Assembly: GCA_000165345.1 (NCBI GenBank)
Contig: CM000429.1
Location: 192,001-256,000, forward strand
Direction of reading: 5' to 3'
DNA: 64,000 nt
In this document: piece by piece, positions 1 to 57,452 of the stretch
How the letters are laid out: the number at the start of each line of letters is the position of its first letter
Position numbering within the stretch: the first letter of the stretch is position 1
Program-made: the position numbers and the translations under genes
Notes under the pieces: generated by a model
Told to the model about the DNA's origin: nothing
What the model saw: the letters and a program-made list of their open reading frames with translations, nothing else
Database searches by the model: none

Positions 1-3000
1 AGAAGTACAGAACAAGAAGTTGCTACTCTTCAACAAGAACTTGGTGAAAAAGAAAAGATATTAATAGCTAAAAATGTTGAAGCAGAACAAAAAATGCAAC
101 AAATGATTAAAGAACAAGGAGAAGCTGAAGAAAAGAAGAAAACTACAGAAACTTTAGCAAAATCATTAGATGAACAACAAAAAGTAATAGCTGAAAGATC
201 AAGTGAAGTAGAAATACAATTAAAAGATGTTGAACCAATACTTAGAGAAGCAGAAAATGCTGTTTCAAATATTCCAAAGAAGAATTTGGATGAATTAAGA
301 TCAATGGCAAATCCTCCTGGTCTTGTTAAGAAGACGATTGATGCTGTTGCAATATTACTTACAAATAATTCAACAAAACCTCAAGCGTGGGAAGAGAGTA
401 GAAAATTACTCAAGAGTTCAGATTTTATTACAAAAGTATTAAATTTTGATTCAAATACAATAACTTTAAAAACTATGCAAAGATTACAAAAAGAATATTT
501 AGAATCACCAGAATGGGATACAGAAAAAATTAATAGAGCAAGTCATGCAGCTGGTCCTTTATCTTCATGGGTATCGAGTATATTACAATATTCATTAATA
601 AGTGAAAAAGTACAACCATTAAAAACAGAGATTAGTCAATTAGAAAAATCAAAATTAGAGAATGAAAAGGGATTAGAAGCAGCTCAAAAATTGGTTGGTG
701 AATTACAAGAACGTATAGATGTTTATAAGAAAGAATATGCAGAATTAATATCTCAAGTACAATTAATAAAAAGAGAAAAAGATCTTGTAACAAATAAAGT
801 AGAAAGAAGTATAAGATTATTAGGTAATTTAACAACAGAACAAGATAGATGGAGAGAAGCTAAGGAAGGATTTAAGACAGAATTTTCAAATATTATGGGA
901 GATTGTCTTTTATCAGCAGCATTTATATGTTTTGCAGGAGGTTTAGATCAGATTTTAAGATCACATTATATAAAATTATGGCAAGAGATTTTGGATGAAT
1001 TTCAATTATCACATACAAATGCTAATACTTTTAAGATTGTTGATTATTTATCAAAACCAAATGAAAGATTATTATGGCAAAGTTATGGTTTATCAAATGA
1101 TGATTTAAGTGTAGAAAATGCAATAATAATAAAGAGACATATTCGATACCCATTTATAATAGATCCATCAGGATATGCAACAAGTTTTCTATTAGAGATG
1201 AATAAGCATAGTAATAGTAATGCAAATCAAGGGAAAGGAGGAGGTAAACTTCAGACAAGTACTTTTTCTGATTCAAATTTTCCAAAATTATTAGAATCAT
1301 CATTAAGATTTGGTTCATCATTATTAATTCAAGATGTAGGATCATCATTAGATCCTTTAATATATAATGTATTAAATCAAGAAATTCATTTACATGGAGG
1401 AAGATCATTAATAACAGTAGGAGATAGTGAGGTTGATTTTTCTCCTCATTTTAGAGTTTATTTAACAACTCAAGATCCAACAATCCAATATGGTCCAGAT
1501 CTAACAAGTAGGGTAACGATGGTAAATTTTACTGTAACACCAACATCACTTTTAGAACAGAGTAGAAATATTATTTTGAAAGAATTACGTCCAGATATTG
1601 ATAAGAAAAGAACAGATTTACTTAGATTACATGGTGAATATCGTGTACAATTAAGAGAATGTGAAGATAATTTGTTATTAGCTTTATCAAATGTGAAGGG
1701 TAATATTTTAGAAGATGAGACAATTATTAATACATTAGAAGTACTTAAAAAGAAAGCTCAAGATATACAAATAGAGACAGCAAAAATGGAGAATACTATG
1801 GAACATATAGATCAAGTACTTACTCATTTACTTCCATTATCATTAACAGCAACAAGAATTTACTTTACTTTACAACATTTATCATCAATTAGTCCAATAT
1901 ATCAATATGATCTTGAATTTTTTAATAGAATACTATATGGAGTATTAGAAAGAAATAAATCAAAGATTAATTCAAATTCAAGTGATAATGGAGGAGATCA
2001 TGAAGGAGATAATGGAGAAGAAAGTAGTAATAATAATATAGAATTTGATCACAAGATACAAAAGATTATAATCTTAGATCTATTGCATGAAGCATATTTA
2101 AGAGTTGCTCAAGGTTTATTACATAATGATAGAATAGTATTTGGATTACATTTGATGAGAATTTATATTGAATCATATTGTAATCTTTCTTTAGATAATT
2201 TAATGGGAAAAGAAATTGATCTTTTAACAAAATCAGCATCAGCAATCAATATATCAAGTTCAAGATCTTCTTCTTCAAATAACAATATATTGGATTCTAT
2301 ACCAAAATCTTTTGGATTAGATCGAGAACAAATGAATCAACTTTCTGTAATGATTTCATCAATTAAATCGTTTTCTAAACTTTGTGAATCATTTAATTCA
2401 AATAAAAATGAATGGGAGCAATTAATGATTTCAACAGAACCTGAAGTAATATTAGATACCTTAGGTACCGGTATATGGGATGATCAGGAATTATTAGATT
2501 CAATATTCAATAATGATGATAATAATAATAATCAGATGAATTCTGAAGAATTTAATGAGAAGAGAGAAATATTAAAGAACTTTAAAAAAGGTGTATTAAA
2601 ATGTTTATTATTAAAGATTATTCGTCCTGATCGTATTGTTACTTTATTTAACAAGTTAATATCAGATACATTAGGATCTGAATTTTCTAATATCAGTGAA
2701 TTTTCTAAGGATTTACTTAAAGAGATTGTTTTGAAGCAAATAACTGAAATAACACCAATATTATTTGTAACTTCACCAGGTTTTGATGCTTCTTTGGTGG
2801 TTTCTCAATTAGCAAATGAACAGAATTCGAATTTACTTTCTATTGCAATAGGATCAGCAGAAAGTTTAGAAAAAGCTGAATCATCAATTAAGACAGCAAT
2901 GAGAAAAGGTACATGGGTTATGTTAAAAAATGTTCATTTATCTTCAGGTAATTTGGATTATTTGGAACAATTACTTCAAAATCGTCAAAATAGACCAAAT

Positions 3001-4974
3001 AAAGGATTTAGATTATTTTTAGCAACAGAATTACCAAAAAAGATTTTGAATCCAAGTCATAAAGATTCAGTTATTGGTGCATCATTTAATACATCAGATT
3101 CTTCATCAGGTTCATTATCACCACTTGGTATATCATTTAATTTAATTCGTATTTCAATGACAATAGTACTTGAATCTCCTGTTGGACTTAAAGCAGCATT
3201 ACAAAGAGCAAGTGAGATTACTATTAAGACTGTGGATGATTCTCAATCTTCTTCAACAATAAGAATAAAATTATACTTTTTATTAGCATTTTTACATTCA
3301 GTAATATTAGAAAGAAAAAGATATACACCATTAGGATGGACAAAGTTTTATGATTTTAGTGAAGCAGATCTTCAATGTTGTATTAATATAGTAAATCAAT
3401 GGACAATAACAAATATATCAGGAGATCCTGAACAGATTCCATGGGAAGCAGTACGTAAATTAGTATCACAAGTAGCATATGGAGGAAGATTGGATAATAT
3501 TGTAGATAAACAGATTTTATATATATTAATAGATGAGATTTTATCATCAAAATCATTTGAAGATGGATCAGAATTAATAAGTTGTACAAGTGAATGGAAT
3601 AAATTATATAGAAATGATCAAATAAAGCCAAATATTTTATTAGCTCCAGATACATCTAAAAAAGTTCAGAATTATTTGGATTGGGTAGAAAAATTATCAA
3701 GTACAAATTGGCCAACTTGGCTTGGGTTATCTCCTTTAGCAGAGAATGTGATTTCAGCACAAAAAGGACAAAAGATGAGTTTAAATTGGAGTGTATTAAT
3801 AATTAGATCAAGAAATGAAACACCAGATTTGATCCCAAAAGATAAAGGTAATATGATTACAAATATAGAAGAAAATGAAGAATTAATGGGAGATGGAGGA
3901 TTATCAGGAGGAGGAAATAATAAGATAGAACAAGAAGAGGCATTAAAATCAGATACAACAGGAATACCAAGTTGGTTATTAAAGATTAGTGGAAAATTAA
4001 CAAAAATGGAGAATAGCTTAAGAATATTTTCAGAATATATAATAAAGAATTCAAGAAATATTATAGAATATTCAGAGAATAATAGTTTGGATCCAATATT
4101 AAGATATTATGTTTCAGAGATTTCGAAATTCTATAGAGGATTTAAAAATATTTGGGAAAACATTCATGAATTATTAAATATTCTTGGAGGTGAATCAAAA
4201 CTAACAAATAATTTAAGAAGTATAGGATTAAGTATACAATCAGATTTAGTACCAGATTTATGGCTAAAATTATTACCAATATTACTTTATTCATTAGATA
4301 TTTGGCTTTCAGATTTGATTCGAAAACTTTCACAGAATTGTTTATTAATTTCAAGTATATGTAAGAAATTGGATATAAAAGTAATAGAAGGAGGAGAAGA
4401 TTCAAGTAAGATGGATATTTTCTTATCAAATGTATTAATATCATCACCAGGAATAAAGAAGATTGGATTAAAAACAATTTGGGTAGGAGGAGTATGTGAT
4501 CCAGGAGCTTTCTTTACAGCAAGTAAACAATATGCAGCAAAGAGATTTGGATGTAGTTATAATGATATAGTTCCAAGAATAATATCAATAGGAGAAATGG
4601 TGGAAAATGAGAATGAAGATGGAGATGAGGCAAAATTTGTATTAGGAGGATTAACAGCAGTAGCTTTAGAATGGAAACAAGAATCAAAATTATTTGAATT
4701 AAGTACAGAAAAGGCAGTATCTGAAGTTCCTCCCATATTAGTAGAATGGATAAAGGGAGATTTAGATATGATTACAAATCATAATATTTCTGACAACAAT
4801 TATGAATTGAATATAATTCCTCAAAATTCTTTGGATAATTCGATTGCAATTCCAATATTTAAAGATTCAAACAGATCGCAAATATTGATGTGGATAAATG
4901 TTCCAGCAAAAGCAAATGAGAACATTAAACAATGGAGACTTGCTTCAACTTCATTAATTTTATGGAAGGGATAA
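1..4974 (+). CDS. Dynein heavy chain, C-terminal ~1650 aa (stalk coiled-coil/MTBD, AAA5-AAA6, C-terminal domain). It is 5'-partial: the frame is open from base 1.
   Basis: Frame 1 is open from nt 1 through the TAA at 4972-4974. It contains the coiled-coil stalk and an ANPP motif typical of the dynein stalk/MTBD region, then large AAA-like blocks. At 1626+ aa with no stop, this is far beyond chance in 70% AT DNA. Confidence 0.88.
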   Translation, partial: RSTEQEVATLQQELGEKEKILIAKNVEAEQKMQQMIKEQGEAEEKKKTTETLAKSLDEQQKVIAERSSEVEIQLKDVEPILREAENAVSNIPKKNLDELRSMANPPGLVKKTIDAVAILLTNNSTKPQAWEESRKLLKSSDFITKVLNFDSNTITLKTMQRLQKEYLESPEWDTEKINRASHAAGPLSSWVSSILQYSLISEKVQPLKTEISQLEKSKLENEKGLEAAQKLVGELQERIDVYKKEYAELISQVQLIKREKDLVTNKVERSIRLLGNLTTEQDRWREAKEGFKTEFSNIMGDCLLSAAFICFAGGLDQILRSHYIKLWQEILDEFQLSHTNANTFKIVDYLSKPNERLLWQSYGLSNDDLSVENAIIIKRHIRYPFIIDPSGYATSFLLEMNKHSNSNANQGKGGGKLQTSTFSDSNFPKLLESSLRFGSSLLIQDVGSSLDPLIYNVLNQEIHLHGGRSLITVGDSEVDFSPHFRVYLTTQDPTIQYGPDLTSRVTMVNFTVTPTSLLEQSRNIILKELRPDIDKKRTDLLRLHGEYRVQLRECEDNLLLALSNVKGNILEDETIINTLEVLKKKAQDIQIETAKMENTMEHIDQVLTHLLPLSLTATRIYFTLQHLSSISPIYQYDLEFFNRILYGVLERNKSKINSNSSDNGGDHEGDNGEESSNNNIEFDHKIQKIIILDLLHEAYLRVAQGLLHNDRIVFGLHLMRIYIESYCNLSLDNLMGKEIDLLTKSASAINISSSRSSSSNNNILDSIPKSFGLDREQMNQLSVMISSIKSFSKLCESFNSNKNEWEQLMISTEPEVILDTLGTGIWDDQELLDSIFNNDDNNNNQMNSEEFNEKREILKNFKKGVLKCLLLKIIRPDRIVTLFNKLISDTLGSEFSNISEFSKDLLKEIVLKQITEITPILFVTSPGFDASLVVSQLANEQNSNLLSIAIGSAESLEKAESSIKTAMRKGTWVMLKNVHLSSGNLDYLEQLLQNRQNRPNKGFRLFLATELPKKILNPSHKDSVIGASFNTSDSSSGSLSPLGISFNLIRISMTIVLESPVGLKAALQRASEITIKTVDDSQSSSTIRIKLYFLLAFLHSVILERKRYTPLGWTKFYDFSEADLQCCINIVNQWTITNISGDPEQIPWEAVRKLVSQVAYGGRLDNIVDKQILYILIDEILSSKSFEDGSELISCTSEWNKLYRNDQIKPNILLAPDTSKKVQNYLDWVEKLSSTNWPTWLGLSPLAENVISAQKGQKMSLNWSVLIIRSRNETPDLIPKDKGNMITNIEENEELMGDGGLSGGGNNKIEQEEALKSDTTGIPSWLLKISGKLTKMENSLRIFSEYIIKNSRNIIEYSENNSLDPILRYYVSEISKFYRGFKNIWENIHELLNILGGESKLTNNLRSIGLSIQSDLVPDLWLKLLPILLYSLDIWLSDLIRKLSQNCLLISSICKKLDIKVIEGGEDSSKMDIFLSNVLISSPGIKKIGLKTIWVGGVCDPGAFFTASKQYAAKRFGCSYNDIVPRIISIGEMVENENEDGDEAKFVLGGLTAVALEWKQESKLFELSTEKAVSEVPPILVEWIKGDLDMITNHNISDNNYELNIIPQNSLDNSIAIPIFKDSNRSQILMWINVPAKANENIKQWRLASTSLILWKG

Positions 4975-4997
4975 AAGTTTGGAAATGGGTGGAATTT

Positions 4998-5066
4998 GCG
5001 TCAAGTGCATGCACGAGACGGCGCGCGGTGGTCTGCATGCATGCCGGTAAAAATGGGTACCGTAGG
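4998..5066. promoter_or_regulatory. GC-rich island in the convergent spacer between the dynein 3' end and the phosphatase 3' end. It holds GCATGC at 5007-5012, a GCATGCATGCCGGTA run at 5035-5050, and GGTACC.
   Basis: Seen directly: gcgtcaagtgcatgcacgagacggcgcgcggtggtctgcatgcatgccggtaaaaatgggtaccg. This is a local GC spike in otherwise AT-rich DNA. Confidence 0.4.
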
Positions 5067-5212
5067 TAATAATAATTGTTGATAAGAGAGAAGAAAGGAA
5101 ATAAGAGGTGGAGAATTGTTGTAAATGTTATTATTTTAAATATAAGAATAAAATACTTACATTTTAATTTTAATCTACTTATGTATTATTTGTATGATTG
5201 ATTGATAATTGA

Positions 5213-7570
5213 CTATTGATAGAAATAGTTCCAAAAACTGTTAGATTCTTCACCTTCGAACTCAAAGTAAATAGAACTGATTTCTTTTATACTCAATTTT
5301 GAATTGTTTCTAATTAGTAGAATTAAAAGTTGGGTAATATCTAACTCGAAATGATGATTATTAATTTGTTCATTGAGGTTAGTTTTCTCATAATCCTTTA
5401 AACTTTGATTTTCAGCAGTACTTAATATTAATGAAGATACATCTGCATGGTTATGACTATCATTTCCTTGAAAATGTTCGGAAAGAATTTGTTTGGCTTG
5501 ATTAAAGTACGTAGTCTTAGATCCAATCCAAAGATAAACCATAATGTTTTTAATAGGATTTTTTTCTAAGGGTGAAAGTGGGAGATTGGTTTGTTCTTTG
5601 TCTTTTTCTTTTTCTTTATCTTTTCTCTGTTCTTCTTGTTTCTTTTTCTGTTCTTCTTTTTCTTTATTTTTTTGTTCATCTGAAGTGATTTCTCCAATGA
5701 TAATGAGAGGACAGACTGAGGTAGGAAGAAGATCCTCAGAATCAAAAAAGCGAAGAGACTCTGATCCAAAATAATCTGGAAATCTAAATAATAAAACTTT
5801 CATTCTTCCACTATCTAAAGTACTGTGGCAATCCTCATTCATAGAAAGATTTTCTTGAGATATAGAACTTCTTTTTGAGTAGCTGCTATTATTAAAACAG
5901 AAAACCTCTTCCTGGAAAAAATGTATTGAATGTTGCTTCTTTACAGGAGCAGAATCTTCTTTAGTAGAAAATGAATGAACTTTTAAGTCTTTCATTTCTG
6001 ACTCTTGTGACTGAGAATGATCTTCCAAAGATTTATCTCCACCTTTGAAAGCAAAATTCAACTTTGGTATCACAACTTTACCAAAAGTCAAAGGACAACT
6101 TTCAATTTCTCTACTTTCCTTTTCCAGAAGATTATCTCTTGAGTAGATAATTCTCCGAGAATCTAATGAAAAATGATGTTGGTTGATTCGTCCCATTTCT
6201 TTAATAGATTCTGTATCAGAGCTTTTGAAATTATCAGGTGAATTTTTTGAAGGAATTGGAGATCCATTTGAAGACGGAAAAGAAGAAAAGTATGGCAAAG
6301 ACTCGTCCAAAGATATTAAAGATGATAACTCTGAGCTTGATTGAGAATCTGAACTCAATCTATCTATTTGGTTGTAATTTCTTTCATTATTATCAACCCC
6401 AACATCTTCGGCCTCATCTTCGACATCATTCTCATAATCCAAAATAATGGCATTTTTGGAAATACTTTTTATCGATGGAGAGGAAAATGACCTTTGTATT
6501 ACGTCATAGGAATTACATAAATGCAAATCTGTTGGCGCCAGAATTTGCATGAATTCCCCGCTCTCTGAGAATTCGTGAAAGTATTCGAGAATAATGGTGG
6601 AAGAAAGGATATTTGTAATACATTCAGAGGCTGAATTTCGGTCATCTGCAAGAGCTCCAATTATCAAGTCTGCTCTGATTTCTAAGTTTTCCAGCTCTAA
6701 AGATGAGTCATATCCTATTTCGATTTTGAGAATTTGTCTGCAAAACCTCAAAACCGCTAGAATTGACTCCCTAACGCCCTCATTAACTTGGCTTCCAATC
6801 CAAATCCAAAGTTTCTCACGACGAATAGAGTCTGCTTCCTCTAGAAGACTTTGTCTTAATAGATAGATTTTATTTGAATTTAGACTAAATTTATTACTTC
6901 CGTCCCCTTTCCAATGAATTAACGAAACTGGAATGCCATGTTTAGATATATAGTAAATCTTTGAAGAAGTAATCCAATGTTTCTTTCCAAGATGGTCTAT
7001 TGAAGGAAGCTCAGCTTTTTCTCCCCCTCCTTCTTCTTTTTCATCCCTAGTTGGAATCCCAAATTTTACCAAACTCAGAGCTTTCTGAAATAATAATAGC
7101 TGATAAGTAAACCCAATATTTGGACTTGAAGTGCCCCTTCTTTCTCTTACATATTCTGAAGCATCATTAAAGCTTTTATTATATTTCCACATTAAATAAC
7201 CGATTACTATACTAGAGGATCTAGAAACACCCTCTTGACAATGTACATATATCCTGTTTTCATTGCTTTCCTTGAATTTTGCATCAATCCATTCAATACT
7301 ATCATAAAGCACTCCTTCAATGCTTTCTTGAGGAGTATCCAAAACATAATAAGTCCTGTACTCTAGCTTATTTTGAAACACATTCTTGCAAACATCTCCT
7401 GAAACATTAATTATATGCGTTATCTTGTTTTTTTCCAACTTATTCCAATCACAAGCTACCTGATATCCTCCGAGATACAGTCTACCTTCAATTATCTCAC
7501 TACAAACTGTTCTATACCTTTTAATTATATTCAAACGTTCATTCGTTAGCATATTAACTTTTTCCCCCAA
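5213..7570 (-). CDS. Dual-specificity protein phosphatase. The DSP catalytic domain is N-terminal; the long C-terminal part is low-complexity and K/E-rich.
   Basis: A 785-aa ORF. It carries the active-site signature VHCQEGVSRSSSIVIGYLMW (HCxxGxxRS P-loop), preceded by a DSP-like fold (YLGGYQVA...). The C-terminus has KEKEEQKKKQEEQRKDKEKEK repeats. Confidence 0.8.
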   Translation of the reverse strand: MGEKVNMLTNERLNIIKRYRTVCSEIIEGRLYLGGYQVACDWNKLEKNKITHIINVSGDVCKNVFQNKLEYRTYYVLDTPQESIEGVLYDSIEWIDAKFKESNENRIYVHCQEGVSRSSSIVIGYLMWKYNKSFNDASEYVRERRGTSSPNIGFTYQLLLFQKALSLVKFGIPTRDEKEEGGGEKAELPSIDHLGKKHWITSSKIYYISKHGIPVSLIHWKGDGSNKFSLNSNKIYLLRQSLLEEADSIRREKLWIWIGSQVNEGVRESILAVLRFCRQILKIEIGYDSSLELENLEIRADLIIGALADDRNSASECITNILSSTIILEYFHEFSESGEFMQILAPTDLHLCNSYDVIQRSFSSPSIKSISKNAIILDYENDVEDEAEDVGVDNNERNYNQIDRLSSDSQSSSELSSLISLDESLPYFSSFPSSNGSPIPSKNSPDNFKSSDTESIKEMGRINQHHFSLDSRRIIYSRDNLLEKESREIESCPLTFGKVVIPKLNFAFKGGDKSLEDHSQSQESEMKDLKVHSFSTKEDSAPVKKQHSIHFFQEEVFCFNNSSYSKRSSISQENLSMNEDCHSTLDSGRMKVLLFRFPDYFGSESLRFFDSEDLLPTSVCPLIIIGEITSDEQKNKEKEEQKKKQEEQRKDKEKEKDKEQTNLPLSPLEKNPIKNIMVYLWIGSKTTYFNQAKQILSEHFQGNDSHNHADVSSLILSTAENQSLKDYEKTNLNEQINNHHFELDITQLLILLIRNNSKLSIKEISSIYFEFEGEESNSFWNYFYQ

Positions 7571-19472: not shown

Positions 19473-19620
19473 TTCAAAAAGCTCAAAAGTTTTAATTATT
19501 TGTTTAATTATGCTTTCTCATTAGTGAAATATAATTTATATAATAATTTTTTTTCTTTTAATTCTTTGATTATAATTATATTATTTTTCCTTAAATTTAG
19601 AAGAGTTTTAACATATTTGT

Positions 19621-28218: not shown

Positions 28219-28544
28219 CTCAGTTGCTTTGTAATTAGATTCTCCATTATTTACTATATACCAATCTCTTCTTTGATTTAAATAACGCAAATAATATAAT
28301 TCTAATTTAGTTTTTATATTAAATTCTATTATACTAGTTTTAGTTATTGCAATTTTTCTTATCCACTTTTTTTCTCATTTCAATTTTCTCCTATACCGGT
28401 ATTTCCATATATTCATATTGTAATCACATGCTTATGTGGACAAATTAATTATTAACATTTTCCGCATGCAAATACCGGTCAACCATAATTTATGGGAATG
28501 TTATGAAAAGGAAAAAAGTTTTTTTTTTATTATTAAATGTAAAG

Positions 28545-29453
28545 TTAGTCATCATCTGGAAGTCCAAAGTTATTATTGATTTCTTTTTCAGAAATTCCAG
28601 GCATTTTTTTTTTGATCCATTGTCTTAGACTACAGACATTATCTTCCCAAATAGATAATTCTTGGTTAGTATTTGATAAATTTTCATTCAGGATTTTAGG
28701 ATTATCTTTGATTATAATGTTGATATTATCTAACCTAATAACAAGTTCTTTCTGTTCTTTCAGAATTTGATCTAATTCTTGACTTTTTTTTTCTCTGATT
28801 TGATGCTCAGGAGAATCAGTTTCTTTAGAATCTTTGATCATTTTTTCAAGTGATTTAATTTGTTCTTTGGAATCTTGGATTGAATTTCTGTTTCAATATA
28901 ATAAGATAAAATTCAAGTATAAGTGAGTTATATATGTTTAATAACGTAAGTATACAATGATAAAAATATTAATAAGAATTTGAGATATTCTAATTTTTGT
29001 GATTAAACTTACTTTAAATATTCCAACCTGTTTTCTTTGCTAAATTTAGCAGCACTAGGAAGAGCCCAAAAAATATTAAGAGATCCAATTTTGTCACTTA
29101 CAACCAAAGAATCGTCTACAAGACTTTGCAAAACGTCTTTGACAGTTTGTTCAATTATTCCACATTTCTTTCCTAATTTTTCTATTTCTTTTAAATTAAA
29201 ACATTCTTTCTATAATGAAATTATTAAAGGAAATAAATATTTGTAATTCAAAAATTATATTCACTTTTTATTGCTTTTCTCAATAATTTTCAAACTGATA
29301 AAACTTACTTTTTCGTATAGAGAGTTCAATAATCTAATGAATTGTTCGGAAAATAGAAATTTTAGTTACATAATTTTTACAAATTCTTTCATTTAAACAA
29401 TCATAAGCTTACCTTGAACGTTTCTCTTCCATAGAAACTCCTCTTTTAGACAT
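28545..29453 (-). CDS. MND1: Meiotic nuclear division protein 1 (MND1) homolog. It has 4 exons: complement join(29413..29453, 29309..29333, 29013..29209, 28545..28887), 201 aa.
   Basis: The hand-spliced product is MSKRGVSMEEKRSR-LLNSLYEK-KECFNLKEIEKL...VKDVLQSLVDDSLVVSDKIGSLNIFWALPSAAKF...WEDNVCSLRQWIKKK...FGLPDDD. It is collinear with human MND1 as I remember it (MSKKKGLSAEEKRTRMMEIF...VKEVLQSLVDDGMV...YYWAFPSKA...RWTDNIFAIKSWAKRKFG...GIPEDFDYID). All three introns are GTAAGY...YAG (79, 99, 125 nt) and all phases are consistent. The ORF track shows only the last exon (28545..28841). Confidence 0.75.
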
Positions 29454-29722
29454 TTTTTTTTATTATAAATATCAATTCCAGTAATCTCCTTATAAACTCA
29501 ATAAATAAATTTTTATTTTTTTTTGAATATATTATAATTTATTCAACACAAATTCGGAAAAAAATGACGTAATATATTTGCATGCATGCAATTATACCGG
29601 TATGGTATTTTCATCATACATGCAGAGTTTAAGGTGGAGGCAAAGGGAAAAAAGAAAATAGTTGTAAAATATCAAATAAAATTAATATATACTTTTAAAG
29701 AAGAATTCTAAAGTTTTATTTA

Positions 29723-30182
29723 TTAGTTACTTTTATTAGCTTGCCTTTTTTCAAATTCTTGTAATTCGTGGTGCAGTTGTTTAATAAACTCATCATCCAC
29801 ATCCTCGTCATCCCAACCTAAAATAAAAAAAAAATAAATATATATAAATAAAATTTGTTCATGTTTATCATTAAAATGATAATTCAAATAAGGAGTAATC
29901 TTACCTGTTGCATCCCAGTTTTCATCCCATTCTCCAACATCAGGATCAATCTGGGTCTCAATATTGTCTAATTTGGGGTTAGTATAATTCTATAAGAACT
30001 TAATGGAGGACTATGAAAGATGATATGAATAATTCTTCCCTTATTATTTGATCATATATCTTTTTCCGTCCACAAATTAAAGAAAATTACTTACCTAAAT
30101 CATCGAACTCCTCAAGTTCATCATCTATTTCATCAATAAATGAGTTAATGTTATCATTTCCAGTTTCCTCATTGGATGCCAT
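29723..30182 (-). CDS. DSS1: DSS1/SEM1 (26S proteasome / BRCA2-associated small acidic protein) homolog. It has 3 exons: complement join(30095..30182, 29905..29967, 29723..29817), 81 aa.
   Basis: The spliced product is MASNEETGNDNINSFIDEIDDELEEFDDL-DNIETQIDPDVGEWDENWDAT-GWDDEDVDDEFIKQLHHELQEFEKRQANKSN. It has the conserved acidic W-rich core (WDENWD...WDDEDVDDEF) of DSS1 (human, as I remember it: ...EEDDEFEEF...[24 protein letters not shown]). The introns are GTAAGT...TTAG (127 nt) and GTAAGA...TTTTAG (87 nt). Both junctions are phase 1 and consistent. It is absent from the ORF track. Confidence 0.75.
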
Positions 30183-30620
30183 CTTGACAAGTTTACTATC
30201 TTTCAATCAAATATGTTTATATTTATATATATATATTCCTGTAAAGATATCTTCTATTAATATAATAATATTATTATTTTATTATTGTAGCAAAAATTTA
30301 TTCCAGAGGGGAACTCAACGCAAAAATTTTATCCTCAAATATATTAGGGATAAAATTCAAGCATTATTTTAATATGTACAAGTGTGGTGTAATGTTAAAA
30401 ACTATTTTTGCCGTCTAAAAAATAAAGAGATTAAAGATGGACAATACAAGATTTGAGAGAAATTCAGAGGTAAACATTTTAAAAACTAACAAAATTTGCA
30501 TAAAATAAACAAAAGAGTGAATAGTTCTGCATGCCATATTAAACAATTATTTTATAACTATTGATCAAATTTCTTTTGCCCTCCATTTCCCCCCACAAAG
30601 CCTAGAAGCAAAACCACGAG

Positions 30621-30648
30621 CACCCGCCAAAAAGTAGGCGCCAAAAAC
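30621..30648. promoter_or_regulatory. Two adjacent E2F-like sites (CACCCGCCAAAAAG and TAGGCGCCAAAAAC) in the divergent spacer between DSS1 (-) and RPS19 (+).
   Basis: Seen in the sequence: cacccgccaaaaagtaggcgccaaaaacg. Confidence 0.4.
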
Positions 30649-30979
30649 GAGACAAATATATGTTTGACATTTAAAAGTAGAGGCAATGTAAAGAAGGTAT
30701 TAAGTTTTAAATTAATGAATAGATGAAAGCAAGCATATGTTTGTTTAACTACGTGTCTCTTTGAATAATTAATAAAGAATAATACATTTTATAGTTGAAA
30801 GTCAAGTAATTATTAGATAATTCCCAAAGAATAGGTTTATACGGGAAAACGGCAAAAAAAAAAAAGAATTCCAAATCGGGTTTTAATAAACACCATTAAT
30901 AATAATTGGAATATTACATTCAAAGTGAGACTTTGAAGAGCAAGAAGCTTGATATTACTATATTTAGTGGTTTGAAAGG

Positions 30980-31432
30980 ATGACATTGTATGAAACAGCA
31001 GCTCCAAGAGTAATTAAAACAGCTAAGGATGTTCCAGCTGGAATCTTGATTGAAAAATTCGCTCAACAATTAAAGAAGGGTGGCAAGATGACAATGCCAG
31101 AATGGGTTGACCACGTTAAGACTGCTTCATCAAAGGAGTTACCACCACAAAACTCAGATTGGCTCTACATTCGTGCTGCTTCAATTTTGAGACACTTATA
31201 TGTCAGACCAAATGTTGGTGTTGGTGCTCTTTCTAAGTTCTATGGTAGAAAGCAGCGCAATGGGACAGCTAGAAACCACTCAGCTGTTGCTTCACGTGGA
31301 ATTATTCGTTACTGCTTAATTCAGCTCCAATCTCTTGGTTTAGTAGAATTCAATCCAAATACAGGTACCCGTAGACTTTCTCCACAGGGTCAACGCGAGC
31401 TTGACTCCATTGCTAGACAATGCAAAGCATAA
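30980..31432 (+). CDS. RPS19: 40S ribosomal protein S19e.
   Basis: A 150-aa ORF with the S19e hallmarks PEWVDHVKTASSKELPP, WLYIRAASILRHLY, GVGALSKFYGRKQRNG and LSPQGQRELD. Confidence 0.9.
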   Translation: MTLYETAAPRVIKTAKDVPAGILIEKFAQQLKKGGKMTMPEWVDHVKTASSKELPPQNSDWLYIRAASILRHLYVRPNVGVGALSKFYGRKQRNGTARNHSAVASRGIIRYCLIQLQSLGLVEFNPNTGTRRLSPQGQRELDSIARQCKA

Positions 31433-31670
31433 GCCTGAGGATCTTTTCCTTCTTGCACTTTAAAGAAGGTATGATCTTAAATATGAAATCTACTTTAAAT
31501 CTTATTAAGATAAACTTGTTGAGGTGAAATACCGTTATTTATCTTTCTAGTTTTATCGTATTTTATTATTAGCCATTAATTTTTAGTAAATCACGCAGTT
31601 TTTTTGTCTAATTACTCTATTAATCACGGTTGTAATTGCTGACTTTTGGGATGCAGAATATTTGAATGGA

Positions 31671-31790
31671 AGGAGGGGGATCTGAGTAGGGAAGGGTAAG
31701 GGGGAAAGGCTGGAGATGAGGGGAGGAGGCGGAGGTGAGATAAGAGGAAAAAAGGTAGGATATCAGGGGGAGAGGAGAAGATAAAATCGA
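31671..31790 (+). repeat. A ~120-nt purine/G-rich tract with multiple GGGG/GGAGG runs. It lies in the convergent spacer between RPS19 and UBL5.
   Basis: ggaaggagggggatctgagtagggaagggtaagggggaaaggctggagatgaggggaggaggcggaggtgagataagaggaaaaaaggtaggatatcagggggagaggagaag. It is strongly strand-asymmetric, almost pure purine. Confidence 0.6.
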
Positions 31791-32317: not shown

Positions 32318-32572
32318 TAAAGAAAATCAGCTGAAAGTGGAAGAAGAATAGCTTTTTTTTCCCCTCCACTCAAAAAATAATTTTATCATTATTACGTGTC
32401 TCCTGCAAATCGCCTATACCGGCATTCATGCAGAAATCTTTGCACATGCAAAAAAAAAAAGTTGCACATGTGGACAACAAAACACAAAAATATAATTATT
32501 GGGGCTCGCCCATCATAATCTACGATAAACTAGTAATCTTAAAGAAATTTTCATTTTTATTTCTTAAAAAGA

Positions 32573-33205
32573 TTACAATTCCAGTTTGGCAGAAGGAGCA
32601 GTACCAGAGTAATGAGAACAGGCAGTGACCTCAATACGCTTTGAAGTTCTTCCAGAGTAAGAACCAAGCTGCTCAATCTTAGTGAGTGTGAGCTTACTCT
32701 CATCATCAACCAATTTTCCAAAAACTACGTGTCTTCCATCAAGATGAGGAGTGGGGGTGAAAGTGATGAAGAATTGGGATCCATTGGTATTAGGACCTCT
32801 ATTAGCCATTGAGACTACATGAGATTCATGAACAAACTTAAAGTTTTCATCCTCAAAAGAATCACCATATATGCTTTTTCCACCAGTTCCATTACCATTA
32901 GTGAAATCACCACCTTGAGCCATGAAACCTGGAATAACTCTATGGAAAATACTTCCAATATAACTCATTTCTTTACCATCTTTATCCTTCATTCCACCAA
33001 CACAAAGGGAGTAGAAGTTATTGGCAGTCTTTGGCACTTCTACACCAAAAAGACCAATTCTCAACTTGCTCTCTTCCTTATCAATGGAGACCGTGAGCTC
33101 AACAACTACTGAAGGGGTTACTGTACTTGGACGAACACCTTTCTCTGCAAAAACCGAGACAATTAGCCCAAGTAATAGTGAAATAAAAGCAAAGATAAAT
33201 CTCAT
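32573..33205 (-). CDS. Cyclophilin-type peptidyl-prolyl cis-trans isomerase with an N-terminal signal peptide (ER/secreted cyclophilin-B-like).
   Basis: The signal peptide is [20 protein letters not shown]. The cyclophilin core contains [27 protein letters not shown] and [20 protein letters not shown]. Confidence 0.9.
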
Positions 33206-41158: not shown

Positions 41159-41232
41159 GCTGTCTTAGCTCAGCACGGTAGAGCGCCAGCCTTTTAAGCT
41201 GGTGGTCATGGGTTCGATCCCCATAGACAGCG
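41159..41232 (+). tRNA. tRNA-Lys (anticodon TTT/UUU), 74 nt. A T5 tract immediately 3' fits a Pol III terminator.
   Basis: I folded it by hand as a cloverleaf: acceptor GCTGTCT/AGACAGC, D-arm GCTC..GAGC, anticodon stem CCAGC/GCTGG with loop CTTTTAA, T-arm ATGGG-TTCGATC-CCCAT, discriminator G, then TTTTT. Confidence 0.85.
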
Positions 41233-42844: not shown

Positions 42845-43646
42845 CTCTACTGTTTTCACTGGGGTATTATTTATAATCAAAATTATAATATAGAGAATAC
42901 CCGGAAGATTGACTTCTCTCAATTAGGAATTTGGAGAATTCATATAAGAAAAGCAATGCCTTTTTATTCAAATGTTTTTCCCCTCATATTTATTACTAGT
43001 TTTTCAACCTAATTTCCATTTAAATTAATTGTTATCTACTTTCTACTTGTTTTGACTATTTTTCTATTCTCGACAAATCTTTTGTATTTTCTAGTTTAAC
43101 AGACTACTTGCTTAACCTAAGAAGCTGTATTTATAGGTTTAATCAATAGCACCTCATATCTAGAGTTTTTGAGGATTGAAGCAAAGCTTTAATACAAAAT
43201 ATTCATATTAAAACAATCTCATTTCTTCCTATTATTTCCACTTAGTGCATGCAATAAATACAAAAATCATTTTAGGCGCCACCCGACGCCACGTGTGCAT
43301 GCAATTATCTTGGTAAACTAGATGAGCTGGGTCAAGGGTTGACCTAGAAAAAGAGAGAAAAATTGAAATTCTGAAAATTAAGTAAATTAGAGCGATTTAA
43401 AGAGGAAAATTGGAAGGTTTAAGATAAGTAAAGGAAATTAGGATTCTTAATCCTTTCTTTAGTGTCGATTGTTAATTCAATAATTAAACAGAGGTGCTAA
43501 TTTACTAATTTAGGTAGAGAATAGACAACATAACATAATTCAAGTCCACTTTTTTTTTCAGAAATTCCAAAGAATTAATTAAAAATTAACAGTTTTAATT
43601 AAAACAGAATTGTGTAATCAAATTTTAACTTTATTTGAAAAAAAAA

Positions 43647-44846
43647 ATGTCGTCTTTCTCAGGAGATCAAGCTGCAAATGGAGAACAATGCATAGTAATT
43701 GACTGTGGATCAGCTTATATGAAGGCAGGAACTGACAGTGATAAAAGTCCAACATGCATTTTCCCTTCAATGGTAGGCCAGTATAGATCAAGATATGTTC
43801 CAGAAGATGAGGATAATAACCCTATTTTTGTAGGAGAGGAAGCAATTGCGCAAAGAAAGAAGTTATCTTTAACATTTCCAATTGATCATGGCCATATTGA
43901 TGACTGGACAAAGTTTGAAGAGTTATTAAATTATCTATTTTATAGAGGCTTGGATATTGATCCTATTGATAGCTCAGTAATTATCACAAAACCTCCTTTA
44001 TGTAGTAACAGGCATGAAGAAAAAATTACAGAGTTAATGTTTGAGATGTTTCAGACGCAAAGCTTAAATATAGCTTTACAGGGATTAATGGCATTATATA
44101 GTGCAGGTAGAACAACAGGAGTTGCTTGTGATATTGGAGAAGGAGTTACACAAGTTGTTCCAGTTTATGATGGTTATTGTGATTCCAGCTCTCTCAGAAG
44201 GGCAGATATTGGCGGACAAGAAATTACTATGTATCTACAAAAGCTTTTATCTGACAAGGGTTATATTGCAACAACTAGGGATGACTTAGAACATGTAAGA
44301 ATTATTAAAGAAACTTTATGTTATATTGCAAAAGACCCTGCAGCAGAAAATGAGCGTCCTGAAGAAGAGATTAATGAGGTATATACTTTACCTGACGGAC
44401 TAACACTTCATGATGAACATACAAATAAGATTGAAATTGACAAGGAAAGGTTCTATGCTCCTGAGGTTATTTTTGACCCAAAACTTATAATGAGAGATGT
44501 ACAGCCAGTTCACGAACTGATCATGGAATCCATTATGTCTTCTCCTATGGAAGTTAGGAAAACACTTATGGGTTCTATATTACTTAGTGGAGGTACATCT
44601 CTTACAACAGGTATTGAAGAGAGATTAGAAGAAGAGTTAATGTATATTTGCCCTTCCCAGGCTAAAAGTAATATTAGAGTTACTCCTGCTGACGATCGTA
44701 ACTATGCTATTTGGAAAGGAGCTCAGTTATTTAGTGCTTTAAGAGATTATCAGGAGAATCTTTGGATATCAAGAGATGAGTACTTAGAGGAAGGAGTTAA
44801 TATTTGTATCAAGAAACAGCCTTTCTTCAGTTCTATACCAAAGTAA
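43647..44846 (+). CDS. Actin-related / actin-like protein, a divergent actin-fold ATPase. The ORF-track start at 43635 is a TTG; the ATG at 43647 is the likely start.
   Basis: It has actin-fold phosphate-1 and other motifs: CIVIDCGSAYMKAG, VGEEA, LMFEMFQT, ALYSAGRTTGVACDIGEGVTQVVPVYDGY, ILLSGGTSL. Identity to conventional actin is low, so it is an Arp/ALP rather than actin. Confidence 0.8.
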   Translation: MSSFSGDQAANGEQCIVIDCGSAYMKAGTDSDKSPTCIFPSMVGQYRSRYVPEDEDNNPIFVGEEAIAQRKKLSLTFPIDHGHIDDWTKFEELLNYLFYRGLDIDPIDSSVIITKPPLCSNRHEEKITELMFEMFQTQSLNIALQGLMALYSAGRTTGVACDIGEGVTQVVPVYDGYCDSSSLRRADIGGQEITMYLQKLLSDKGYIATTRDDLEHVRIIKETLCYIAKDPAAENERPEEEINEVYTLPDGLTLHDEHTNKIEIDKERFYAPEVIFDPKLIMRDVQPVHELIMESIMSSPMEVRKTLMGSILLSGGTSLTTGIEERLEEELMYICPSQAKSNIRVTPADDRNYAIWKGAQLFSALRDYQENLWISRDEYLEEGVNICIKKQPFFSSIPK

Positions 44847-46609: not shown

Positions 46610-46861
46610 CCGCCATCTCAGTAGTTTGAATTGAAATAGTTGAGAAATTAAGAAACTATAAGTACTATTTTGAAGTTTCTATTATATTCATAAAGTTAGT
46701 CAAATTTGAAAACGAATTATTTTTTCTTTTGTTTTTCTAAATCTCACAAAATCTATAGTTTAGTAAAGGAAATAATCCTTATTGATTATTTGGTTTTTTG
46801 ACTTTAATGTAATTGTCAGCGTAGAAAACTTATGCAAGTATTCATTCAAAGACTTCCTGAG

Positions 46862-47899: not shown

Positions 47900-48447
47900 T
47901 CATAATATTGCATGCAATCTAATTACGTGGCAAAATTGACAGTGGAATTGCATGCAGACGGCAGTTTAACACAACCGTTCGATTTAAATCTAATTAAATG
48001 AAAAAATTATTATAATTATTTTTTTCGCAAAAATAAACAGCAATTTCGAGTATTAAAGATAAAAGCTAGGTTCTAAAGTTATTAATTGATTATTGGAAGT
48101 AGTTAAGCAAGTGTTTTTACTCAAGTTTGAAAACAACATAGTTAATAAAGCTTCAGAATTTACTCAGAAAGTAAAATGGCAAAAAAAAGATATAAATTAT
48201 AATGGGTATAAAGTTAGTGTGCGCTTTGAAAAAAAAATGTGATTTTACATTTAAAAAGTTCACCCGAGGTAGTTTTTTTTTTCTCCAAATTGCTATGGGT
48301 GCAAAATTTTTAAGATTTTAGCTAAATAATTACACACTTCAAAAGAAAGCTAATTTTAAGCCAAACAAAGTTTATTACAATATATCACAAGGAAAATAAG
48401 TATTAATAGGGAAAAAAGTTCGTTATATGTAGATTTTGCCAGAAAAA

Positions 48448-49893
48448 ATGGCATCTATCAAAATATTTAAAAGTTTACCATTCAACTTCTTGCTACTGTT
48501 TACATTACTGGTTTTTAGTATTGGAGTGGTATCGGTAAAATCCAATGATAACTCTGAAAAGCTTCCAGTTTTTGCATTAGTAGACATTTTTCATGTACCA
48601 CCAGAGTCCAGACAAAAATGTTCAACTATTTTAGGATGGCTTGCAACCAAATACCCAAACAATTATGTCCTAATGAGTGTTAGAAACATTATTTATCAAC
48701 TTGCACTTCCTCATAGTATGCTACAGGAAAATGCGGAAAAGGAGTTAATTGCAGCAATGGATAGTCTTCAAGGAACAATGTCGAATGTTTCTGGACTTGA
48801 ACCGGGTACTTATATAAGTATATTAACTTGTTCTGTGGATAATAAAGGAAGAACAATCCTTCAAAAAATGGTTGAGCATGGTCTAGTACAGGCTCTTTCT
48901 CACACTTTATCTCAAAAATTCTGGGTTGGAGCAAAACTGAACAAGTTATTAGATACAGAAGGAAATAATTTAGCACACTTGGCAGCAATGTCAGAAAATG
49001 ATGAACTGGTACATTATGTTCTTGGAATTATGTTTAAGTCAAATATTGTTGCTGAAATGTTGGAATCTCTTAATTCAAATGGTCAAAAGCCTATTGATAT
49101 TGCAATATTTCACAGAGACCAGCAAACTGTTGATACTATGAAGAATTTCTTCCGAGTAACTACTTTAGCAGAGAGGGAAGGATTTGTAGATGGTGTTGAG
49201 GTTATCGAGGATTCTGTAGCTTTAGCTGAGAAGGAAGCTGAGAATAAAAGGTTTAAAGAGTTTATTGAGAAAGAGGAAGATGCAGCAAGTAAAATCACTA
49301 ACGCTGAAATTACTAGGGATATTGAATATGCAAAACAAGATAATTATAAAGAAAGTATTAATGATGATATTTCAGACTCTCAAAGTCAGTCATTTGAGTC
49401 ATCTGCTGCTGAAGATTCGATGAATTCTAGCCAATTAACTCAAAGTCTTGAGGACGAGTTTAGTATTAAGCCTAGACTCAAAGATCAAGATATTCTACAA
49501 AACGAAAATAATCAGCAAGAACAAACATTCTCTGATGAAAACATTTATGATGAACAAATGGAAGATAGTATTATTAATGGAAATCAAAGATTTTCAGCGA
49601 TTAATAAGATAGAAAATACAGAGAAGGGAGATGAGCCTAGAGAAACTGAATTAAATTTCTCATCTCTAAGAGGAGCCGTTGAAAACAATATGGATCAAGA
49701 AACTCAACATCATCATTATCAAGATGACCAAGAAGAGATTAAACAAGTTAATAAAGAACCTCAAAGTAAATGGAATGCAACAGCTAAGGCTATTGTTGGT
49801 GCTTCTATTCTTGTAGGTACCTCTATACTTGCTGCAACCGTTGTGTTTATTGTCTGTAAAGGATATGGAAATAAGGAAGAAAATAGTTTTTAA
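48448..49893 (+). CDS. Predicted type I membrane or secreted protein with a signal peptide, ankyrin-like repeats, an acidic S/E/D-rich region and a C-terminal TM. The ORF-track start at 48436 is a TTG; the ATG at 48448 gives MASIKIF...
   Basis: The signal peptide is MASIKIFKSLPFNFLLLFTLLVFSIGVVSVKS. An ANK-like block spans GRTILQKMVEHG...GNNLAHLAAMSEND...GQKPIDIAIFH. The C-terminal TM is AIVGASILVGTSILAATVVFIV. Confidence 0.6.
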   Translation: MASIKIFKSLPFNFLLLFTLLVFSIGVVSVKSNDNSEKLPVFALVDIFHVPPESRQKCSTILGWLATKYPNNYVLMSVRNIIYQLALPHSMLQENAEKELIAAMDSLQGTMSNVSGLEPGTYISILTCSVDNKGRTILQKMVEHGLVQALSHTLSQKFWVGAKLNKLLDTEGNNLAHLAAMSENDELVHYVLGIMFKSNIVAEMLESLNSNGQKPIDIAIFHRDQQTVDTMKNFFRVTTLAEREGFVDGVEVIEDSVALAEKEAENKRFKEFIEKEEDAASKITNAEITRDIEYAKQDNYKESINDDISDSQSQSFESSAAEDSMNSSQLTQSLEDEFSIKPRLKDQDILQNENNQQEQTFSDENIYDEQMEDSIINGNQRFSAINKIENTEKGDEPRETELNFSSLRGAVENNMDQETQHHHYQDDQEEIKQVNKEPQSKWNATAKAIVGASILVGTSILAATVVFIVCKGYGNKEENSF

Positions 49894-49925
49894 TTCACAT
49901 AGCTTGTTTTAATCCCAAATCTACC

Positions 49926-49946
49926 TGCATGCATGCATGCATGCGG
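49926..49946. repeat. Tandem (GCAT)5 / overlapping GCATGC x4, in the convergent spacer between the 48448(+) and 50137(-) genes.
   Basis: cctgcatgcatgcatgcatgcggtac. Confidence 0.8.
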
Positions 49947-50136
49947 TACAAAGTAGTAATAATACTAGTTATTTAAGTTTACATTTAAAATTTTTGTAAA
50001 AAGTACAATAAGAAATAGTTTTGGTTTTTATTAACAAAACATTAAGCTAATATTAACATAAAAGAGTACTATTGGAAATGGTGGTAATAAGCAGAACTTC
50101 CATCTTTTCTCCAATTGAACAATTAGCACAAAGATC

Positions 50137-56294: not shown

Positions 56295-56812
56295 TAAATG
56301 ATATAAAAGATAATATAATTACTTTATTATTACAAAAGATTCAAAGGTAATGAAAATAATGTCATTAAATAAAGCATATTTATAGGATTAGTAATAGTTG
56401 TACTATGGTAAAGTAATCATATTATAATTTATTATTTTATGAGTAAATAAAGCATATGATGATTTTGGTAAGTGAGTGTGTATAATATCATAGAAGAATA
56501 TTTTGAAGAAAATCAGTTTTATTGTAAAAGATATAAATGAATATTGTCATTATTATTAATATAATAAAAACAAATAATTATATTATTACCAAATAACCAT
56601 ACAAATGAACTTATTTCTTTCCTATTTAACATTAATTTATTTATTTATTCAAAAACAAAAGGAAAAGAAAAAATAAATAATAAACAAATTTATTTAATAA
56701 ATTCCCTTATAATATACCTTTTCTCTATTTGGCAAGAAAAAAAGTGAGTTGAAATAATTATATTTTAATAATTTAAAGTTTGAAAGCAATCCCATATTCA
56801 AATATACGTGGT

Positions 56813-56900
56813 GCCGGTATATAAAAATTGACTAGGATGACATTTTTATTTGGCGCATGTTAGTGCATGCACTTACACATGCACTGTTTTGGCGGGAAAT
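56813..56900. promoter_or_regulatory. Promoter-like cluster: TGCCGGTATATAAAAATT (a CCGGTAT element plus a TATA-like box), GCATGCAC x2 and an E2F-like TTTTGGCGGGAAAT. It lies in the convergent spacer between the RING gene 3' end and the ABCE1 3' end.
   Basis: ggtgccggtatataaaaattgactaggatgacatttttatttggcgcatgttagtgcatgcacttacacatgcactgttttggcgggaaatctgggacgg. Confidence 0.45.
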
Positions 56901-57452
56901 CTGGGACGGTAAGTGATTTGTTTATAGAAAATAAAATTATTAGAGTTATAGTCAAGAGGAAGTGATAGTGAATAAGTAGATGTAAATTTAAGAGAGAGAG
57001 AGAGAGAACGAGTGGATTCAGAGTAAATGAAGGTAAATTTTTCAAGAATTGATCAGAAAAAAAAAGAAACAAGTAAGAGTAAATCAATGGAAAATGAGGG
57101 GTGGTATGAAAGAACTAAGGTAGTGATAGAGAAGAGGTATGTTTAAGGAATTTATACAATAAATAGGCGAATAGGGAAAATGTTCGTGTATTCAAGGCGG
57201 CAAAGCCACACTTGTTTAGAATTGATTCTCTTAGACTTTTTGAGTTTATGTGAATAATTTTACTTCTGTATGACCTAAAATGATTATATTATTGTTTAAC
57301 AATATATAAAAAAAGTTTGTAAAAAAAAAGAATGACGTATTAAAATTATATAATTATTATAAAGGAAGCGAAAGAATCAAGTTAAGAATGTTTCTTGGCT
57401 TGTTTGTATTAAGGATTTGTGAGGTTTTTTCTTTTTTTTTTTCTCTTGATAT

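Follow-up and report, generated by a model that had tools for sequence, protein, structure and literature searches.

A conserved GC-rich module of ApiAP2 and E2F/DP1 sites between convergent dynein and phosphatase genes of Cryptosporidium parvum: a candidate promoter of a noncoding RNA

The convergent dynein/phosphatase spacer and its GC-rich island

The stretch of DNA considered here (the window) comprises 64,000 nucleotides (nt) of C. parvum chromosome 1 (assembly GCA_000165345.1, contig CM000429.1, positions 192,001 to 256,000), with a G+C content (GC) of 31.3% and dense, long, intron-free open reading frames (ORFs). In its first kilobases, the genes for a dynein heavy chain and for a dual-specificity phosphatase converge 3' to 3' on a spacer that measures 238 nt from stop to stop and contains a short GC-rich island. 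This island combines putative sites for ApiAP2 and E2F/DP1 transcription factors (TFs) in a module that is kept in six Cryptosporidium species, and we tentatively read it as the promoter of a noncoding, most likely antisense, RNA.

The island, initially delimited at 4998 to 5066, was widened to 5082, as conservation runs on through GGTACCGTAGGTAATAATAATTG. It lies 24 to 108 nt beyond the dynein stop and 131 to 215 nt beyond the phosphatase stop, and its GC measured over 60 nt peaks at 0.62 to 0.63, compared to a window mean of 0.313. A 60-nt GC of at least 0.58 is reached at just two further places in the 64 kb, namely, the gene for tRNA-Lys (41159 to 41232) and a G-rich tract (31664 to 31731). 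The initial annotation had described a GC spike in the spacer, with three copies of GCATGC, GGCGCGCGG, and CCGGTA, and had placed the end of the dynein gene at 4974 on the plus strand and that of the phosphatase gene at 5213 on the minus strand; we confirmed the presence of all these elements, with GCATGC starting at 5007, 5035, and 5039, and both gene ends are correct according to the ORF list (Table 1).

Table 1. Coordinates of the island, its component sites, the second island, and the flanking genes (positions in the window)
Feature	Position	Strand	Basis and details
Conserved GC-rich island (TF-site module and conserved 3' tail)	4998..5082		Identity and GC
TGCATGCA, palindromic ApiAP2 AP2_1 site	5006..5013		Exact match
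GGCGCGCGG, two overlapping E2F/DP1 cores [C/G]GCGC[G/C]	5020..5028		Motif match; cores at 5020 (GGCGCG) and 5022 (CGCGCG)
TGCATGCATGC, two overlapping ApiAP2 AP2_1 sites	5034..5044		Motif match
TACCGGCAT	5041..5049	-	Over-represented co-motif; CCGGTA on + strand at 5044-5049
AT-richer conserved tail AAAATGGGTACCGTAGGTAATAATAATTGTTG	5050..5082		Cross-species identity; holds GGTACC 5056-5061
Second island, TACCTGCATGCATGCATGCATGCGGTAC (near-palindrome)	49922..49950		29-57 nt after stop of ORF 48436-49893 (+), in short convergent spacer 49894-50136
Dynein heavy chain coding sequence, 3' part	94..4974	+	ORF list; stop TAA 4972-4974
Dual-specificity phosphatase cgd1_760, 779 amino acids (aa)	5213..7552	-	Pfam DSPc; stop TAG (reverse complement) 5213-5215; convergent with dynein

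The sequence TGCATGCA is the AP2_1 motif of C. parvum, bound in protein-binding microarrays by the AP2 domains of cgd2_3490, cgd1_3520, cgd8_3230, and cgd5_4250 (PMC4117751; PMC3734150). Three overlapping matches to this ApiAP2 site (TGCATGCA, or [T/C]GCATGC[A/G]) are found in the island, and the ApiAP2_1 motif BGCATGCAH is matched by TGCATGCAC (5006 to 5014) and by TGCATGCAT (5034 to 5042). The E2F/DP1 motif, [C/G]GCGC[G/C] or SGCGCS (PMC7840661; PMC12246861), is the most abundant TF site of C. parvum (PMC12246861), and longer versions of its consensus have been given as [A/T][C/G]GCGC[G/C][A/T] (PMC12246861) and as TGGCGCCA (PMC3734150). The cores of the island read, with their neighboring bases, C-GGCGCG-C and G-CGCGCG-G, and they correspond to the 6-nt core and not to the extended consensus.

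Expected counts over the whole window were obtained from 100 dinucleotide shuffles. The motif TGCATGCA occurs 27 times versus 0.81 expected, SGCGCS occurs 11 times versus 1.12 expected, and CCGGTA occurs 21 times versus 3.6 expected, a six-fold excess, and in none of the 100 shuffles was any of these three counts reached. Furthermore, 20,000 shuffles of the C. parvum spacer did not once place an E2F core and a TGCATG hexamer within 25 nt of each other. As for the distribution of the motifs, 33 of the 38 copies of GCATGC in the window fall outside ORFs of at least 150 aa, nearly all of these in spacers that contain a 5' end and mostly 130 to 650 nt upstream of start codons. The statement that such motifs otherwise mark promoters in the window holds for the most part, except that GGCGCGCGG has its only copy in the island and that the convergent spacer 49894 to 50136 carries (TGCA)4TGC as well. 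An arrangement comparable to that of the island, with a GGCGCCA core sandwiched between two copies of TGCATGCA, occurs in a normal 5' region at 43246 to 43303, i.e., 332 to 389 nt upstream of ORF 43635-44846.

The 9-mer TACCGGCAT, which includes the complement of CCGGTA and has the palindromic form ATACCGGTAT, is present in 5 exact copies in the window and in 19 copies when at most one mismatch is allowed, versus 2.9 expected. Of 13 intergenic CCGGTA clusters, 9 lie within 40 nt of a TGCATG-type hexamer (1.7 expected). Copies of CCGGTA or TACCGGCAT are found, for example, at 5041-5049(-), 22241, 32417, 40574, 52640(-), 28393-28402, and 29594-29603, and the motif usually abuts a TGCATG-type ApiAP2 site. 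In particular, the island and positions 32417 to 32434 have in common an 18-nt composite, TCTGCATG[C/A]ATGCCGGTA. No account of CCGGTA or TACCGGCAT as a Cryptosporidium cis-element was found in PMC4117751, in PMC3734150, or in a full-text literature search. The palindromic ATACCGGTAT recurs at 28393 and 29594, in a 2.7-kb AT-rich segment (28219 to 30979; 25 to 26% GC) that is devoid of ORFs of at least 150 aa and also carries TGCATGCATGCA at 29579; this segment may hold small or intron-containing genes or a long intergenic noncoding RNA (lincRNA).

Regarding the flanking genes, the dynein coding sequence (CDS) in the window corresponds to the C-terminal part of a 5,245-aa product found on identical Logan contigs, with the Pfam domains DHC_N1/N2, AAA_5-9, and Dynein_heavy; the gene is 15.7 kb long and is presumably cgd1_750, an identifier taken from its adjacency to cgd1_760. 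The phosphatase ORF is 100% identical over 779 aa to C. parvum QOY43552.1 and shares 96% identity with the protein of C. hominis, and the name Cgd1_760 derives from the UniRef entry in its 90%-identity cluster. A full-text literature search on cgd1_750 and cgd1_760 returned a variant list and nothing further on the locus. Within the phosphatase CDS, at 6533 to 6551, the canonical E2F sequence TGGCGCCA stands beside CATGCA and is conserved across species, with TGCATGCATGC adjoining in C. canis and in assembly SRR31860986. An internal promoter was considered for this pair of sites and rejected, since the conserved peptide EFMQILAP encoded there implies that protein constraint accounts for most of the conservation.

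The G-rich tract mentioned above is a purine/G-rich spike, GGAAGGAGGGGGATCTGAGTAGGGAAGGGTAAGGGGGAAAGG...GGAGGCGGAGGTGAG, with a 60-nt GC of up to 0.63, located in a 1,140-nt gap between ORFs 30980-31432 and 32573-33205; an unannotated or intron-containing gene on the minus strand is probably located in the same gap.

Conservation of the module and a second island

Using the phosphatase as an anchor, we retrieved the syntenic dynein/phosphatase spacers of C. meleagridis, Cryptosporidium chipmunk genotype I, C. canis, C. ryanae, C. muris, and the assemblies SRR31860986 and SRR18693150, leaving out C. felis, whose contig stops inside the phosphatase gene. The initial annotation had proposed a comparison of orthologous spacers for conservation of the island, and this conservation was found. 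The module, i.e., an E2F core with TGCATG-type runs within about 20 nt, located 26 to 86 nt beyond the dynein stop, is kept in six species (C. parvum, C. meleagridis, chipmunk genotype I, C. canis, SRR31860986, and SRR18693150), and it is absent from the AT-rich spacers of C. ryanae and C. muris. In all six, an E2F core (GGCGCG, GGCGCC, or CGCGCC) lies at +40 to +60 nt from the dynein stop, and the module appeared in no more than 30 of 20,000 shuffles (≤0.15%) of any of the six spacers.

The individual sites are less constant than the module. At 5006 to 5013, C. meleagridis and C. canis retain TGCATGCA, chipmunk genotype I and SRR31860986 retain no more than its TGCATG core, and SRR18693150 has no run on that side of the E2F core. 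On the side of 5034 to 5044, a TGCATG-type run persists in C. meleagridis, chipmunk genotype I, SRR18693150, and SRR31860986; the run of C. canis lies on the opposite side of the E2F core, the order there being (TGCA)4TGC followed by GGCGCGCGC. In SRR18693150, GGCGCC comes first and is followed by CATGCATGtaTGCATGCATGCA, and the CGGCGCCT of this assembly has one of the A/T flanks of the extended E2F consensus. A pattern in which the identity of the motifs is held while their order, copy number, and spacing drift is that of TF-binding-site turnover and is unlike that of a structured RNA. The tail (5050 to 5082) is nearly identical in C. meleagridis and chipmunk genotype I and partly recognizable in SRR18693150 and SRR31860986; a region of transcription initiation and a dynein 3'-end signal are possible roles for it.

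In every comparison made, conservation is higher in the island than in the remainder of the spacer (5083 to 5212), with identities to C. parvum of 0.91 versus 0.82 in C. meleagridis, 0.69 versus 0.48 in chipmunk genotype I, and 0.53 versus 0.37 in SRR31860986. Four-fold degenerate sites of the dynein C terminus are 0.79 and 0.76 identical to C. parvum in C. meleagridis and chipmunk genotype I, respectively, and 0.29 to 0.30 identical in C. canis and SRR31860986, where they are saturated; it follows that the retention of the module in the latter two cannot be a matter of neutral inheritance. Taken at the level of sequence comparison, these data argue that the module is under purifying selection. 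A patch without function, produced by chance or by mutation in a microsatellite-like manner through (TGCA)n slippage and a (GC)n run, would explain why (TGCA)n varies from 1.5 to 5 units across species, as slippage predicts. We strongly disfavor this explanation and consider it very improbable, given that six species have the module at an unchanged offset, even where neutral sites are saturated, that it is rare in shuffled spacers, and that the conservation of the island exceeds that of its flanks.

Over the 8 kb of their syntenic loci, C. ryanae and C. muris have neither TGCATGCA nor the SGCGCS core and show one or two bare copies of GCATGC each, compared to several of each motif in the loci of the C. 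parvum clade. This small sample hints that the use of these motifs at the locus is specific to the intestinal parvum/canis clade.

A second island occurs in the other short convergent spacer mentioned above (49894 to 50136). In chipmunk genotype I, its TGCATG/TATGCA is retained; in C. felis, a GGCGCC core accompanies GCATGCA and TGCATGTATGCA; and in C. canis, the motif is degenerate. As a similar case, this island backs the reading of the first one as a promoter. A downstream signal common to both islands, GGTAC...GTAG.TAATAATA, was also considered and dropped as unproven: GGTAC-N0-8-GTAG occurs 5 times versus 0.6 expected, yet three of the five copies lie inside ORFs, and GTAGKTAATAATA is not enriched (12 versus 8.2 expected).

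The position of the two islands bears on a different role, that of a boundary or roadblock, in which factors bound to the E2F and TGCATGCA sites, with the nucleosome-free patch around them, would halt or separate the converging polymerases without any transcript of their own, keeping phosphatase read-through out of dynein and vice versa. The initial annotation had likewise listed a shared termination or boundary element among its options. In yeast, it is established that general regulatory factors bound to DNA can terminate transcription as roadblocks. Both islands sit in convergent spacers of about 240 nt, 130 to 190 nt past the stop of the minus-strand gene (about the length of one 3' untranslated region [3'UTR]) and abutting the stop of the plus-strand gene, and the offset from the dynein stop is kept in six species. 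The sample is one of two loci, however, and, of the four short convergent spacers that the window contains, two (19473 to 19620 and 46610 to 46861) are without such motifs, so that there is no general requirement for them; moreover, at 24 nt after the dynein stop, the island would fall inside the dynein 3'UTR and not past it, and ApiAP2 and E2F factors have no known role of this type. All in all, we regard a boundary role as unlikely.

The spacer of the second island, 243 nt in length, is itself unusually well conserved over nearly its entire length, with a mean column identity of 78% over C. parvum, chipmunk genotype I, and C. canis and with the blocks TAATTTAAGTTTA and GCAGAACTTCCACCTTTTC kept in C. 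canis; such conservation is unexpected, as the four-fold sites between C. parvum and C. canis are saturated (0.29). It could reflect a conserved noncoding RNA (ncRNA), overlapping conserved 3'UTRs, or a misplaced stop or extra exon of the RING-finger gene. The only Rfam match there is a weak one to the C/D small nucleolar RNA (snoRNA) DdR13 at 50085 to 50169 on the minus strand (17 bits; E = 0.47).

Possible roles of the island

Searching the whole window against Rfam at the gathering threshold returned tRNA-Lys at 41159 only, with nothing at the island; at E ≤ 10, positions 4900 to 5300 gave no match, and ARAGORN predicted no tRNA at the island. The plus strand of the island, in the sense of the mRNA, folds with a z-score of −0.78, and 37 of 200 shuffles fold as well or better; the minus strand has a z-score of −2.7, due to the pairing of the two palindromes with each other. 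The predicted hairpins are unlike between species, and the RNAalifold consensus over five species amounts to −6.8 kcal/mol, with an unfavorable covariation term of +0.4 and a double-sided change at 1 of 11 pairs. A structured ncRNA, a tRNA, and a snoRNA thus found no support in Rfam, ARAGORN, the single-sequence folds, or RNAalifold and were rejected. An unannotated small protein gene was rejected in the absence of a credible ORF downstream of the island, as the spacer has no ORF longer than 45 aa and only low-complexity ORFs of at most 111 aa run antisense to the flanking genes. A repeat or mobile element was rejected as well, as blastn of 4990 to 5085 against the window gave motif-length matches of at most 20 nt only. 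With no Rfam or tRNA match, covariation, credible ORF, or repeat copy, the island is best read as an element that acts at the level of DNA. Accordingly, of the short or noncoding transcript put forward in the initial annotation, a structured ncRNA encoded by the island itself is not supported, while the premise of promoter-type sites without a coding gene start is retained.

The island could still act as RNA, either within the 3'UTR of dynein or as a separate small ncRNA, its GC-rich hairpin or protein-binding site serving 3'-end formation, stability, or translation. It is probably part of the dynein mRNA, given that it begins 24 nt after the stop and that the first canonical AATAAA on the plus strand is at about 5148; its two TGCATGCA palindromes can pair, as the fold of the minus strand indicates; GC-rich spikes in AT-rich genomes are often structured RNAs, as exemplified by the tRNA at 41159; and 43 novel intergenic is-ncRNAs have been reported in C. 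parvum (PMC9465071). The searches and folds described above speak against such a role, including the weak consensus, the plus-strand z-score, and hairpins that vary by species, and the conserved parts are DNA palindromes that are used as promoter motifs elsewhere and whose order is altered in C. canis. We consider an RNA-level element quite unlikely.

We favor instead the hypothesis that the island is the promoter of a noncoding, most likely antisense, RNA. It would be a cis-regulatory module in DNA, made of an E2F/DP1-type core (GGCGCGC) between ApiAP2 sites of the TGCATGCA type, with an abutting CCGGTA, and it would recruit factors that act at ordinary C. parvum promoters; once bound, these factors would start transcription of a noncoding RNA by RNA polymerase II. 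The favored direction is leftward, on the minus strand, such that the transcript would start approximately where the dynein CDS ends and run antisense into the 3' end of dynein; initiation could also be rightward, giving a transcript antisense to the phosphatase, or take place in both directions. The occupancy of the island by TFs, the initiation of transcription, and its direction are what we infer from the nature and position of the sites.

This hypothesis finds a precedent in the 396 long noncoding RNAs (lncRNAs) of C. parvum, 363 of which are antisense (Li et al. 2021, PMC7840661). The antisense lncRNAs begin at the end of the sense CDS, and E2F/DP1 and ApiAP2_1 rank highest among the motifs of the 100 bp that precede lncRNAs, the two occurring together upstream of 17 of them (PMC7840661). 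As the dynein stop is 24 nt away from the island, a minus-strand transcript initiated at the left edge of the island would have its start where the dynein CDS ends. Three of the four features expected of such a promoter are found at the island, i.e., an E2F/DP1 core, an ApiAP2_1 motif, and a place at or just past the sense CDS's 3' end, and the island probably belongs, as judged from these features, to the class of lncRNA promoters with E2F and ApiAP2 marks that has been published for gene 3' ends. The antisense promoter that the initial annotation had listed among its options thus agrees with the published motifs within 100 bp upstream of lncRNAs and with their start at the end of the sense CDS; no lncRNA of this locus is found among the 324 of 396 published sequences.

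Several observations weigh against a promoter. Sixteen probes, of which 12 represented the island, the remainder of its spacer, and the ends of the two flanking genes and 4 represented the second convergent spacer, were compared in both orientations with 324 of the 396 lncRNA sequences of Li et al. (2021), and no match was obtained, with the positive control being found; this negative result leaves about 18% of the published list uncovered. The E2F core of the island is without the A/T flanks of [A/T][C/G]GCGC[G/C][A/T] and differs from the canonical TGGCGCCA, the module is missing in C. ryanae and C. muris, peaks from the assay for transposase-accessible chromatin with sequencing (ATAC-seq) in sporozoites are reported to be without AP2 motifs, and the sequence does not yield the direction of transcription. 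The lncRNA result is softened by the partial coverage of the list and by the published pipeline, which dropped transcripts continuous with an upstream mRNA on the same strand (PMC7840661). In view of the missing lncRNA match, we keep our confidence in the promoter somewhat under one half.

The same missing match would fit a boundary, and it would also fit a 3' enhancer or silencer. In this case, the ApiAP2 and E2F proteins at their sites would influence the promoter of the phosphatase, at a distance of about 2.4 kb, or the expression of dynein, and would not start a transcript. The conserved TF-site module that suggests a promoter suits this possibility too, and there is little intergenic room for cis-elements in C. 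parvum, with a mean of 504 bp (PMC7840661). The literature searched, however, describes no distal enhancer in Cryptosporidium; the motifs in the window otherwise lie about 130 to 650 nt upstream of start codons; and the dynein promoter is more than 15 kb distant. We therefore consider a distal element of this kind improbable.

Elsewhere in the window, a cluster of CCGGTA, TTTGGCGC, TGCATGCA, CATGCA, and GGCGGG was noticed at 56811 to 56890, in the middle of a 1,158-nt ORF-free convergent spacer (56295 to 57452). It may mark an unannotated small gene or a lincRNA; one probe adjoining the cluster had no match in the same 324 of 396 lncRNA sequences.

Comparison with known systems and significance

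The closest known system is that of the C. parvum antisense lncRNA promoters (PMC7840661), with which the island has in common the organism, the E2F/DP1 and ApiAP2_1 (BGCATGCAH) motifs, and the placement at the end of a CDS. The two differ in that transcripts have been shown there, whereas at the island a transcript is what we infer, and in that the motif analysis of lncRNA promoters, in the portions of PMC7840661 available, comes without the cross-species conservation of a module that we could observe for the island.

Ordinary 5' modules of C. parvum (Oberstaller et al. 2013, PMC3734150; 2014, PMC4117751) share the motif vocabulary of the island. The sandwich at 43246 to 43303 repeats its arrangement, with starts of TGCATGCA spaced by 28 nt in the island and by 50 nt at 43246/43296, and cross-species conservation is also seen for the TGCATGCA at 10293, upstream of ORF 10772. 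Different from these modules, no coding gene starts beside the island, and its E2F core, GGCGCGCGG, is not the canonical sequence with A/T flanks.

In Plasmodium falciparum, another AT-rich apicomplexan, antisense transcription is similarly biased to gene 3' ends (Siegel 2014 and Broadbent 2015, cited in PMC7840661). Initiation there has been proposed to be promiscuous, from open chromatin, whereas the island has specific, conserved TF sites. Plasmodium is also without E2F factors (PMC12246861).

The roadblock terminators of budding yeast (Reb1, Rap1, and Abf1) resemble the island in being clusters of binding sites just past gene ends in a compact genome; the likeness is one of position only, and the factors and the organism are unrelated. 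A broader hypothesis, which we regard as rather improbable, is that the island represents a conserved class of ApiAP2/E2F-bound elements placed right after stops in convergent spacers of intestinal Cryptosporidium, working as boundaries or roadblocks or as obligatory antisense "terminator-promoters." Such elements might act through the undescribed composite TCTGCATG[C/A]ATGCCGGTA, in which TACCGGCAT abuts TGCATGCA, and the composite would then be the site of an unknown partner of the AP2 proteins that bind TGCATGCA.

What is new here is the six-species footprint, the second island of the same kind in the window, and the CCGGTA/TACCGGCAT co-motif. If the island is indeed an lncRNA promoter, its value would be limited to that of one further conserved case within a class already published. 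Little is understood of how Cryptosporidium regulates its genes, and functionally validated cis-elements are almost nil (PMC12246861). As a compact, footprinted ApiAP2-E2F module that stands outside any protein-coding promoter, the island offers a clean test case, at which it may be asked whether these motifs are sufficient for antisense or noncoding transcription, whether convergent genes require a bound boundary between them, and what part is played by CCGGTA/TACCGGCAT.

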